From Escherichia phage 1-6bf: a stretch of DNA of 64,000 nt. Shown one piece after another: positions 32,175-60,567 of the stretch (the stretch's first letter is position 1; each line of letters starts with the position of its first letter). The notes under the pieces were generated by a model. That model saw only the letters and a program-made list of their open reading frames with translations. It had not been told where the DNA came from and did not search any database. The stretch lies in sequence record OR983334.1, one strand, 5' to 3'. The position numbers and the translations under genes were made by a program.

Positions 32175-32277
32175 GAGCTTCTAGCGAGGATGTATCTTCC
32201 CCGCCTTCTAAGCGGTCGTTAAAGAAGTAATTGGAGTATGCAGGTTCGAACCCTGTCATCCTCGCTAGAGGCTCTTG
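32172..32277 (+). ncRNA. tRNA-like structured element (about 20 bp outer stem, internal UCU-loop hairpin and T-arm-like hairpin)
   Basis: Outer stem AGAGCTTCTAGCGAGGATG / CATCCTCGCTAGAGGCTCT; inner CCGC-CTTCTAA-GCGG and GCAGG-TTCGAAC-CCTGT; no canonical D-arm. Confidence 0.3.
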
Positions 32278-57915: not shown

Positions 57916-59616
57916 GTGAGCAACCCGGACGCTCTTCCATTTTTGACAGAGATGACTGTCGCTGATATAATCTCTAAGCAAGCAAAGCACGGAGTGAGTT
58001 TCAACCGAAGAAATGCTCGGTGGTATGTTCACCTCCTTAAAGAGATTATTGTTAATATTGACAGAGAGTTGATTCCTCTCTTACCTAAGATGAGATTAGA
58101 TGGCTCTACTTATATGAAGCCGTTTAAGAAGTCTGGAGCTTTGCAGAAGTGGCCTCAAGCCTATTGTGATAGAGTTGGGCTGAAGAGAGAAGACATTGGT
58201 GGAGCTTTCACCTGTGTCGAATACGTAGACTTTGACCCATCGAAAGATGCACGAGTTAAAGAAGCTCTTATGGATGAGGGCTTTCTTCCTCCAGAGTTTA
58301 ACGTATCTAAGAAGCCTTGGAATACTTTCGAAATTAAGAAAGATATGAGAAAGTATGGAACATACCAAGCATGGTATACTGCTTGGATGCGAGGAAATGC
58401 TAAGCAGAAGCAGACAGCCGAGATGGTTGACGCTGATATTAAGAAGTTCTTAGAAAAGCATTTTAGGTTTAAAACTAAGAACTATATGAAGGCTTACGTG
58501 TTTGGTTTGGGATTAAACCCGAATCGACGTAATCCTGTAACGTTTGATGAGATTAAGAAAGCACTAGCCACTTCAAACAAGTGGCCTACAGCTCCTACAA
58601 ACCTCGAGGAGACTCTTGAAGAAGGGTTAGGGGGTGAGCTAGGGAGTGTCGGAAGTTTGCTTAAGAGACGCGTTGTAGCGGCTCACAGGCTAGGTCTTAT
58701 CAGTGGACTCATAGCAAAGGAACGCGAAGATGGTAAACTTTCGGCAGAAGCTAACAGCTGCGCTACGCCGACTTTTCGATTCAAACATCGTATCGTGGTT
58801 AATATTCCCTCCCGTGGTTTGTTTGGTCACGAGTGTCGCAGTTTGTTTGAGTCTGACTATAACTCAGACAGTGATCATTCTCGTCCTTTCGTTATTACTA
58901 ACGTTGTTCCTGATGGTTGTTATATACGAAAAGGTACTAACGTAATTTATGAGAAAGGTAAACCGGGGAAGAAAGACAAACCTGTAGGTGCTTACAAATA
59001 TTACATACCCGCTGGTAAAGAAGTATTCTTAGGGTATGATGGTTCTGGGCTTGAACTTCGTATGCTCGCTCACTACCTCATTAAAGAGTGTAGGGATATG
59101 CTTGCTGAGGCAATTGAAGAGAACAACCCAGCTAAGAAAGCTCTGGCAGAACGTGGTTTAGCTTCTGCTATTATGTATCGTGATATTCTCCTTGAAGGTG
59201 ATATCCACTCCCACAACCAGAAACTTGCTGGTCTTCCTACTCGTGACAACGCTAAAACGTTTATCTATGCATTCAACTACGGTGCTGGCGATGCTAAGCT
59301 TGGTTCAATTGTAGGTGGTGGGGCTGACGAAGGTTCAGTGATGCGAGCACGTTTCTTGGCAGAGAACCCATGTATTGCAATCCTCATTGATCGTATGACA
59401 GAAAAGGCTGCTCAAGGGTACTTGATTGGTGTTGATGGTCGTAAGATTACAATGAGACGAGATGCCACTGGTAAAGTTATGGTTCATAAAGCCCTTAACA
59501 CACTCCTGCAATGTGCTGGTGCTGTTGTTATGAAATACGCTATGATGTTCCTTAACAAGTGGATTGAGAGGGATGGGGTTCGTTGTGCTAAGGTAATTGA
59601 TATGCATAAACTTCAT
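57916..59616 (+). CDS. Family A DNA polymerase, polymerase domain (exon 1; 3' boundary uncertain, ORF track frame runs to 59637)
   Basis: GTG start with AAGGAG RBS; motif A LGYDGSGLELRMLAHY, motif B RDNAKTFIYAFNYGAGDAKLG, GVDGRKI..ALNTLLQCAGA; aligns by eye with T7 DNA polymerase. Confidence 0.7.
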
Positions 59617-60214
59617 TGTGCATGTAAAAGTTGGTGAACTCGGTGAAACCCGACCATTAAGTTGAGGGCAATACCGAGCTAAGCTATTAGGAGGTGATAT
59701 GGCTAAGAAAGATCTAGTGCTAGAAACAACTAGCACAGGATGTATCATCCCTATCTCACACAAACTAAATAAAGATGGTTACTTTCGAAAAATGATAAAT
59801 GGCAAATGGGTCATGTATCACAGATACGTCATGGAAGAGAAATTTGGAAACATCCCTGACGGTTATGAAGTTAACCATAAATGCAAGAATAGAGCTTGTT
59901 GCAATACTGACCATCTAGAAATCTTAGAAGGTAGTGCACATGCTATCGAGTCAAACACTGGCAGAAACAGAGAAAGACAGAATGCTGCTAAAGAGTTCTG
60001 GCTTAACAATGAATGCACTGGTGTTGCTCTTGCAGAAAGGTTTGGTGTGAGCTTTGGAATCGCTTGTAGATGGATTCGAAAGTGGAAAGTGTAGAGACTA
60101 TCCTGCGGGAGTAGGGGGTTAACAGGGAAACCCTCGAAGCGCCAACAACAGCAAATTAGCTATGCTGTTATGATATAGTCCGATACCCGAAGTAATTTGG
60201 GAATAACATAAATG
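59617..60214 (+). mobile_element. Candidate group I intron carrying an HNH endonuclease ORF, interrupting the polymerase before motif C
   Basis: Exon 1 frame stops before motif C; downstream reading DEGQ..GLNWMHTH supplies motif C and the conserved C-terminus right after a G at 60214; HNH ORF lies between. Confidence 0.45.
59699..60094 (+). CDS. HNH homing endonuclease (intron-encoded candidate)
   Basis: GYEVNHKCKNRACCNTDHLEI HNH motif; AGGAGG RBS. Confidence 0.7.
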   Translation: MAKKDLVLETTSTGCIIPISHKLNKDGYFRKMINGKWVMYHRYVMEEKFGNIPDGYEVNHKCKNRACCNTDHLEILEGSAHAIESNTGRNRERQNAAKEFWLNNECTGVALAERFGVSFGIACRWIRKWKV

Positions 60215-60366
60215 GATGAGGGCCAGTTCTCAGTTAATCGTAACGATGTACAGAAACTCAAAGAGCACACTGAGCTTTGCGTTAAGAAAGCTGGTGAGTA
60301 CTTGAACATGGAATGTCCTCTGGCATCTGATTGTCAGATTGGACTTAACTGGATGCATACGCACTA
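60215..60366 (+). CDS. DNA polymerase C-terminal segment (exon 2) with motif C Asp-Glu
   Basis: DEGQFSVN..ECPLASDCQIGLNWMHTH parallels the T7 polymerase end HDEIQVGC..LLDTEGKMGPNWAICH. Confidence 0.45.
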
Positions 60367-60375
60367 AGGTGGGTT

Positions 60376-60567
60376 ATGAGTGTTCGTGATTATTATAAAT
60401 CTTGGGCCATCTTCAGTGGTGGCTCCACTATTACCGCGCTGAATAGTCAATTCTGTATCTTTGAAACAGAGAACTTAGCAATTAGCAAAGCAGCGGAGCT
60501 AGTTCGAAAGTTTCCAGACAAAGCATTCACAATTAAGAGATTAGAGATACCTGCATTGGCAGAGTGA
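60376..60567 (+). CDS. Hypothetical protein (63 aa)
   Basis: ORF track. Confidence 0.3.
   Translation: MSVRDYYKSWAIFSGGSTITALNSQFCIFETENLAISKAAELVRKFPDKAFTIKRLEIPALAE

Follow-up and report, generated by a model that had tools for sequence, protein, structure and literature searches.

A predicted mobile group I intron of subgroup IA2 within motif C of a Kuravirus family A DNA polymerase gene

We analysed a stretch of 64,000 nucleotides (nt), hereafter the window, from Escherichia phage 1-6bf (record OR983334.1), a Kuravirus (phiEco32-like coliphage) that in the region discussed here is 99.9% identical to Escherichia phage 1-6af and 99.3% identical to FH3. The DNA polymerase gene of this phage is interrupted in motif C by 607 nt that carry a gene for an HNH protein. 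Several lines of evidence make it very probable that this insertion, 59608-60214, is a group I intron whose removal restores the polymerase. By its predicted fold it is a mobile intron of subgroup IA2 placed in motif C of a family A polymerase gene and, judged by alignment, it is homologous to, and at the same site as, the polymerase intron annotated in the T7-like phages 13a and K1F (the PhiI/W31 family). What is new is the host lineage; the intron family itself has been known in T7-like phages since 2004.

The insertion separates the His and Asp codons of motif C

An earlier note on this DNA had described a polymerase frame from 57916 that stops at 59635-59637, an HNH gene at 59699-60094 and, after a G at 60214, the bases GAT GAG GGC CAG, with TAA before an ATG at 60212. 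On re-reading, all of these statements proved correct. The open reading frame (ORF) 57916-59637 encodes 573 amino acids (aa), ends with TGA at 59635-59637 and matches Pfam DNA_pol_A (1.4e-13). Downstream, a 51-aa ORF (60212-60367) starts with M-DEGQ and ends with GLNWMHTH, its ATG being directly preceded by TAA at 60209-60211. This second ORF matches the C-terminal ends of DNA polymerases in PHROG and aligns to residues 654-704 of T7 DNA polymerase.

The comparison with intron-less homologous polymerases, which had been suggested, was decisive for the boundaries. In the related phages Ptacy1479 and SU10 the polymerase is a single 614-aa coding sequence (CDS) that does not contain the 607 nt. 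At the site (slashes mark boundaries), the DNA of Ptacy1479 and SU10 reads ...GTAATTGATATGCAT/GATGAGGGCCAA..., and intron-less kuraviruses read ...GATATGCAT/GATGAGGGC..., while the window reads ...GATATGCAT/AAACTTCATT......ACATAAATG/GATGAGGGCCAG..., its 607 extra bases lying exactly at that point. Because of this alignment, the insert can be placed at 59608-60214 to the nucleotide. The intron-less alleles also set the junction, CAT/GAT, so that the break falls between the His and the Asp codons of motif C (HDE); the His codon of SU10 at this point is CAC instead of CAT. The main parts of the gene are as follows.

57916-59607, + strand: DNA polymerase exon 1; 564 codons with family A motifs A and B; its last codon, CAT, is the His of motif C HDE; boundary from the Ptacy1479/SU10 alignment
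59608-60214, + strand: predicted group I intron, subgroup IA2; 607 nt with terminal G at 60214; assigned by homology, covariation and covariance-model match
59699-60094, + strand: putative HNH homing endonuclease gene; 131 aa, in the P6a loop; Shine-Dalgarno AGGAGG at 59689-59694
60215-60367, + strand: DNA polymerase exon 2; 50 codons and TAA; Asp-Glu of motif C at its start, C-terminal His at its end

Joining 59607 to 60215 yields an open frame of 1845 nt for a 614-aa polymerase that is identical at 612/615 positions to the polymerase of Ptacy1479, and the peptide predicted across the joined exons is VIDMHDEGQFSVNR. This product aligns to T7 DNA polymerase from residue 496 via VHDEIQ to the C-terminal His704 (E=4e-33), with the site at VH/DEIQ. 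The proposals that the distal segment parallels motif C and the C-terminus of the T7 enzyme, and that splicing from a His codon ending in T onto 60215 would restore H-DEGQ, are hence upheld. Two such His codons had been offered as donor: 59605-59607 is the right one, and 59614-59616 is rejected by alignment to the intron-less relatives. Likewise, the span originally given, 59608-60366, contains the intron (59608-60214) but also takes in exon 2.

Inteins typically sit at conserved catalytic motifs, and the insert does lie at such a motif. However, the exon 1 frame meets a TGA (59635-59637) 28 nt into the insert and a TAA precedes exon 2. Moreover, the length of the insert, 607 nt, equals 3n+1, and the HNH ORF has its own start and lies in frame 2, exon 1 being in frame 1. 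An intein is refuted by these frames and stop codons, in agreement with the earlier note, and so is translational bypassing of the insert; to our knowledge, a bypass of 607 nt has no precedent.

The insertion carries a covarying group I core of subgroup IA2

We extracted 14 copies of the intron from phage records and aligned 11 non-redundant versions without the ORF. All 14 copies, those of the window, 13a and K1F among them, occupy the same site, CAT/...G/GAY GAR. The following helices are proposed in the window.

59600-59625, + strand: P1; exon AUAUGCAU (59600-59607) with internal guide sequence GUGCAUGU (59618-59625); wobble U59607-G59618 at the 5' splice site
59611-59617, + strand: P10 5' strand CUUCAUU; its partner is the first 7 bases of exon 2, GAUGAGG, 60215-60221
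59630-59636, + strand: P3 5' strand GUUGGUG; partner CGCCAAC, 60140-60146
59640-59677, + strand: P4 (59640-59644 with 59673-59677), enclosing P5 (59649-59651 with 59666-59668) and P5a (59652-59654 with 59661-59663)
59678-59687, + strand: 5' strands of P6 (59678-59680 with 60088-60090) and P6a (59684-59687 with 60082-60085)
60096-60180, + strand: 3' half of the catalytic core; P7, P7.1, GUA linker, P7.2, P3 3' strand, P8 and J8/7 (AUGAU)
60096-60101 with 60175-60180, + strand: P7; invariant in 11/11 copies
60102-60103 with 60108-60109, + strand: P7.1, followed by the GUA linker
60114-60120 with 60129-60135, + strand: P7.2, between the GUA linker and the P3 3' strand
60140-60146, + strand: P3 3' strand, in the 3' half of the core
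60147-60153 with 60163-60169, + strand: P8; 5 compensatory pairs; followed by J8/7, AUGAU
60186-60201, + strand: P9 hairpin CCCGAA-GUAA-UUUGGG with a GNRA loop; 97% paired, 4 compensatory pairs

In the window, 12/12 of these helices are made of standard pairs throughout. Across the 11-copy alignment 92.5% of the cells are paired, compared with 35-42% after a shift of the 3' partners by 1-3 columns, and 28 pairs have changed on both sides, compared with 14.8 +/- 2.3 in shuffled alignments (0/500 shuffles reach the observed value). No column invariant in the 11 copies is altered in the window. P3, P4, P5, P6 and P6a together are 100% paired and contain 13 compensatory pairs: changes are compensated in 5/7 pairs of P3, in 2 pairs each of P4 and P5 and in 3/4 pairs of P6a, and the third pair of P6 is C-G, U-A or G-C depending on the copy. 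All 8 pairs of P1 are standard; the three next to the splice site (the U-G wobble and its two neighbours) are invariant in the 11 copies, and exon position -6 covaries with its partner (GC in 6, AU in 4). For P10, 91.9% of the cells are paired and two pairs carry double changes. Finally, an unconstrained minimum free energy fold of the ORF-less RNA gives P1, P3, P4, P5, P7.2, P8 and P9.

The region 60102-60135 reads CC-UGCG-GG, A-GUA, GGGGGUU...AACCCUC. Introns of subgroup IA2 are recognized by two extra helices, P7.1 and P7.2, linked by GUA between P7 and the 3' strand of P3 (PMC3428280), and it is by this criterion that the intron is assigned to IA2.

A covariance model built solely from the 3' halves of six Autographiviridae introns gave a single match in the window (71.4 bits, E=4e-18), which spans 60091-60219 and stops at the exon junction, and no match in the two intron-less loci (L001, L002). 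Since the insertion is also precisely absent from ~87 related phage records, and the model matches at this locus only, the insert is not a chance resemblance. With P1, P10, the covarying P3-P9 core and its homologues in 13a and K1F, the proposal of an HNH-bearing group I intron is borne out. In a core of this kind, P3 and P7 make up the pseudoknot.

The intron belongs to a family described in T7-like phages

Over 80-99% coverage, the whole intron shows 65-68% nt identity to the polymerase introns of Teseptimavirus, Kayfunavirus and Teetrevirus and 69% to that of Vibrio phage Vp_R1; blastn E values against the T7-like introns range from 1e-15 to 1e-42. Partial matches were found in Aeromonas and Edwardsiella phages. 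In 13a and K1F an HNH gene lies inside gene 5, its product is 54-59% identical (aa) to that of the window, and GenBank gives the polymerase as a joined CDS. Similar HNH genes occur in other Autographiviridae, for example Sekstaphage-1.

In common with the PhiI/W31-type introns, that of the window parts the His of motif C from the Asp (site 881, E. coli Pol I numbering), has no P2, has GUA-linked P7.1 and P7.2, and holds in P6a an HNH ORF of ~131 aa with its own Shine-Dalgarno sequence. We take site 881 to be the His of HDE from the Klenow numbering (D882, E883). The T7-like introns are also alike in size (598-607 nt), and their J6/7-P7 and J8/7-P7 strands are near-identical to those of the window. 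The differences lie in the host, a Kuravirus (Gordonclarkvirinae) whose polymerase has no exonuclease domains and is distant from T7 gp5, and in the RNA: the guide has been adjusted to fit AUAUGCAU of the kuravirus exon, P5a extends P5, P7.2 is shorter, P8 is longer, and the intron ends in AAAUG, in contrast to GAAAG in the T7-like copies.

According to PMC3428280, no group I intron had been described in a T7-like enteric phage before those of PhiI and W31 (Bonocora and Shub 2004); these two are of subgroup IA2, lie at polymerase site 881 and carry an HNH endonuclease (I-TslI in W31) in P6a, and they are cited from Bonocora and Shub 2004 as self-splicing. K1F gp5.3 has been described as lying within a putative group I intron (PMC4925675). 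Group I introns with a nicking HNH enzyme in a conserved region of a family A polymerase gene are likewise found in SPO1/SP82 (I-HmuI/II), Bastille (I-BasI), Pf-WMP3 (I-PfoP3I) and phiL7, and the Pf-WMP3 intron resembles that of the window in being IA2 with its ORF in P6a (PMC3428280). Unlike the window intron at the motif C site 881, however, all of these interrupt the part encoding the fingers subdomain, at site 674 or 676 (PMC3428280).

The internal guide sequence changes with the host exon

The exon and guide strands of P1 read AUGCAU with GUGCAU in kuraviruses, GUGCAU with GUGCAC in the T7-like phages and UCCAU with GUGG in Aeromonas phage MQM1. At exon position -6, A is paired with U in kuraviruses and Vp_R1, and G with C in the T7-likes; at position -3, C is paired with G in MQM1; and at position -7, G is paired with C in Vp_R1. 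In these predicted pairings the internal guide sequence changes along with the exon of each host, and that of the window fits the kuravirus exon, not the T7-like one.

RNA and protein are both constrained

The HNH ORF lies between the covarying strands of P6a, and its last ~13 nt overlap the 3' strands of P6a and P6. The protein matches Pfam HNH_3 (PF13392; E=7e-12, 45.2 bits against a cut-off of 24.8) and PHROG 6254, 'HNH endonuclease' (2.4e-41). A search of PDB sequences with it gave no match, I-HmuI included. Its 68 relatives from a large protein search (34-98% identity) bear no informative names, and none links it by name to I-TslI. Among its relatives, the free-standing gene 5.3 of T3 and other T7-like phages, which also adjoins the polymerase gene, is 43-47% identical in the N-terminal HNH_3 region, over ~64-73% of the protein; unlike the window gene, it lies outside any intron and leaves the polymerase frame uninterrupted. 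Within the window, no second copy of the intron and no paralogous HNH gene was detected (tblastn returned the query only, and both the covariance model and a whole-window Rfam scan pointed to this locus only).

Between the window and PE006, PAS59, SU7 and ECBP2, the noncoding ribozyme segments are 96.7-100% identical, while the HNH ORF is 78-92% and the flanking exons 71-96% identical. Relative to PE006 there is not a single change in the ribozyme, at a synonymous divergence (dS) of ~0.46 in the ORF. The ratio of nonsynonymous to synonymous divergence (dN/dS) of the HNH gene is 0.02-0.17. The near-invariance of the ribozyme, together with this ratio, therefore argues that RNA and protein are both under purifying selection.

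The intron is patchily distributed among kuraviruses

The intron is present in 10/97 kuravirus-like records: 1-6af, FH3, PE006 (two), pEC-N1203-2Af.1, PAS59, ECBP2 (two) and SU7 (two). None of the ten annotates a spliced polymerase gene; in these Kuravirus and Suseptimavirus records the locus is broken up into a truncated polymerase, an HNH gene and a 'polymerase-like' protein of 51 aa. Metagenomic kuravirus-like contigs show this arrangement too, with HNH relatives of 68-76% identity. Searching the literature, we came upon no account of an intron in Kuravirus, phiEco32, SU7 or ECBP2, and neither the SU7 genome paper nor a 2023 comparative paper on kuraviruses (PMC9965538) mentions one.

We count the patchy presence of the intron (10/97 records) as indirect evidence on homing. 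PAS59 (L014, 1-1160) is a mosaic: its polymerase exons are SU7-like (~92-100% identical), and its intron ORF for the most part resembles that of the window more closely. This pattern suggests that intron and flanks may have separate histories and move or recombine independently. The intron-less target is identical at 11/12 positions between kuraviruses (ATGCAT/GATGAG) and T7-like phages (GTGCAT/GATGAG), making a transfer route between the families plausible.

Other polymerase genes contain two group I cores, as seen in a metagenomic kuravirus-like contig (L018; 2001-2125 and 2968-3095) and in MQM1 (L007; 895-1004 and 1894-2012). In both, the second intron lies upstream of the motif C site, and in L018 it is preceded by a 173-aa ORF that has no Pfam match. 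The IA2 core model also matches outside polymerase genes, once in Rhizobium phage RHph_N3_13 (L016, 1277-1388), in an intron splitting a ribonucleotide reductase gene, and twice in Aeromonas phage phiA047 (L017; 988-1107 and 1968-2102), splitting a terminase gene; in the annotations, these two genes figure as partial or split.

Weighing the intron against a fractured or inactivated gene

Several points weigh against a functional intron. At the gathering threshold Rfam calls no intron in the window: RF00028 scores 26.2 bits, whereas its gathering score is 50 (local E=1.9e-4; E=0.014 over the whole window). The Rfam alignment, which aligns AGACUA and GAUAUAGUC, is sensible for the P7-P9 half only, and the 5' half of the intron is aligned wrongly. 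The intron ends in AUG (60212-60214), in frame with exon 2, making separate translation of the 51 aa possible. The tie to the experimentally spliced PhiI and W31 introns is indirect, via 13a, K1F and the account in PMC3428280. Lastly, splicing in this phage, as in any kuravirus, is what we infer from sequence and fold. The Rfam result has an explanation in the 396-nt ORF in P6a, because of which the ribozyme is split, the 5' half misaligned and the score low. We reject the Rfam placement of P3-P6 within the 3' end of the HNH gene, since covariation puts P3-P6a upstream of the ORF. The covariance-model search that the earlier note had advised has a divided outcome, clear with the model built from Autographiviridae and below threshold with RF00028.

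If a free-standing HNH cassette had fractured the gene, the 573-aa part (ending ..CACKSW) and the 51-aa part (MDEGQ, from ATG 60212) would be translated separately and assemble without splicing. Apart from the terminal AUG, this reading can draw on the GenBank records, which annotate the 51 aa as a separate 'DNA polymerase(-like)' CDS, to which the SU7 record adds a ribosome-binding site, and on gene 5.3, the related free-standing HNH gene that T3 and other T7-like phages have beside gene 5. Yet it leaves unexplained the covarying group I core in the flanking noncoding segments, their 97-100% conservation amid diverging coding DNA, and a guide that pairs with both exon ends and changes together with the exon. 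The AUG is not a conserved feature of the intron either, because the T7-like copies end in AAAG or UAG and have none. Moreover, the GGG of the would-be ribosome-binding site lies within the stem of P9, and such a fracture would part the His from the Asp-Glu inside one catalytic motif. We consider the likelihood of a fractured gene to be slight at best.

Alternatively, the intron may no longer splice, the polymerase being a pseudogene and the phage replicating with another polymerase. Nothing specific favours such a dead insertion besides the sub-threshold Rfam score. Against it, both exons are intact and encode a protein identical at 612/615 positions to the intron-less allele, the columns invariant in all 11 copies are kept, and both the ribozyme and the HNH gene are strongly constrained. 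In addition, 1-6af and FH3, near-identical to the window phage, are propagated isolates. Without splicing, the polymerase would be without its catalytic Asp-Glu, which we count as evidence that the intron still functions in kuraviruses. The probability of a dead insertion appears negligible, and a group I intron remains by far the preferred reading.

A proposed mechanism of splicing and homing

In our model, the polymerase gene would be transcribed as one pre-mRNA, in which P1 (exon AUAUGCAU with guide GUGCAUGU), P3-P9 and P7.1/P7.2 would form. Attack by an external guanosine after U59607 would free exon 1; with P10 as guide, exon 1 would then be ligated to G60215, and the intron would leave with G60214 as its last base. 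From the joined exons the complete 614-aa polymerase would be translated. The HNH protein, translated from its own ribosome-binding site, may cut or nick intron-less polymerase alleles of co-infecting phages near TGCAT/GATGA, and recombinational repair would copy the intron into the cut allele (homing). For endonuclease activity, cleavage site and homing, the model follows the analogy of related intron HNH enzymes.

The target TGCAT/GATGA(G/A) encodes the universal His-Asp-Glu of family A polymerases. It is a speculative and rather unlikely extension that the endonuclease acts across phage families, moving the intron between unrelated coliphages (Autographiviridae, Gordonclarkvirinae, Grimontviridae), serving as a weapon against co-infecting intron-less phages of another family, or both. 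An intron endonuclease of PhiPA3 reportedly interferes with a co-infecting phage, as shown within one family. Still less likely is the variant in which the intron-terminal AUG lets exon 2 be translated alone as a back-up to splicing.

Neighbouring observations

The spliced 614-aa polymerase has no exonuclease domains. We considered whether an N-terminal exonuclease part had been lost to another insertion and rejected this, separate exonuclease subunits being normal for the phage group: the 5'-3' and 3'-5' exonucleases are separately encoded in all its members (PMC9965538). Directly after the polymerase gene, a 63-aa ORF (60376-60567, + strand) matches Pfam T4_Y13H (7.8e-22), a family of small T4 proteins of unknown function. 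In SU10-type kuraviruses an extra 121-aa ORF (L002, 2370-2735), absent from the window and from Ptacy1479 and with no Pfam match, directly follows the polymerase stop; it may be another mobile insertion. Elsewhere in the window, 32186-32264 (+ strand) matches the Rfam tRNA model at 29.7 bits (threshold 29); its D-arm is nearly missing, and 20 nt are inserted behind the anticodon stem. No tRNA was detected by ARAGORN anywhere in the window, and the segment may be a degenerate or unusual tRNA-like element.

Significance

The most immediate consequence is for annotation: the records of 1-6af, FH3, PE006, pEC-N1203-2Af.1, PAS59, ECBP2 and SU7 should show one spliced 614-aa polymerase. Intron-bearing phages are under development for therapy, and pangenome and taxonomy work counts the fragments as separate genes. 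None of the points made here is new as a concept. All together, the comparisons place one intron family at an identical catalytic-motif site in polymerases from three or more unrelated phage groups, with the guide apparently retuned to the exon of each host, which would be a clean natural example of a mobile ribozyme adapting after a move between families. With ~10% of kuraviruses carrying the intron, these phages would also offer a ready system for the study of homing and marker exclusion in therapeutic coliphages.

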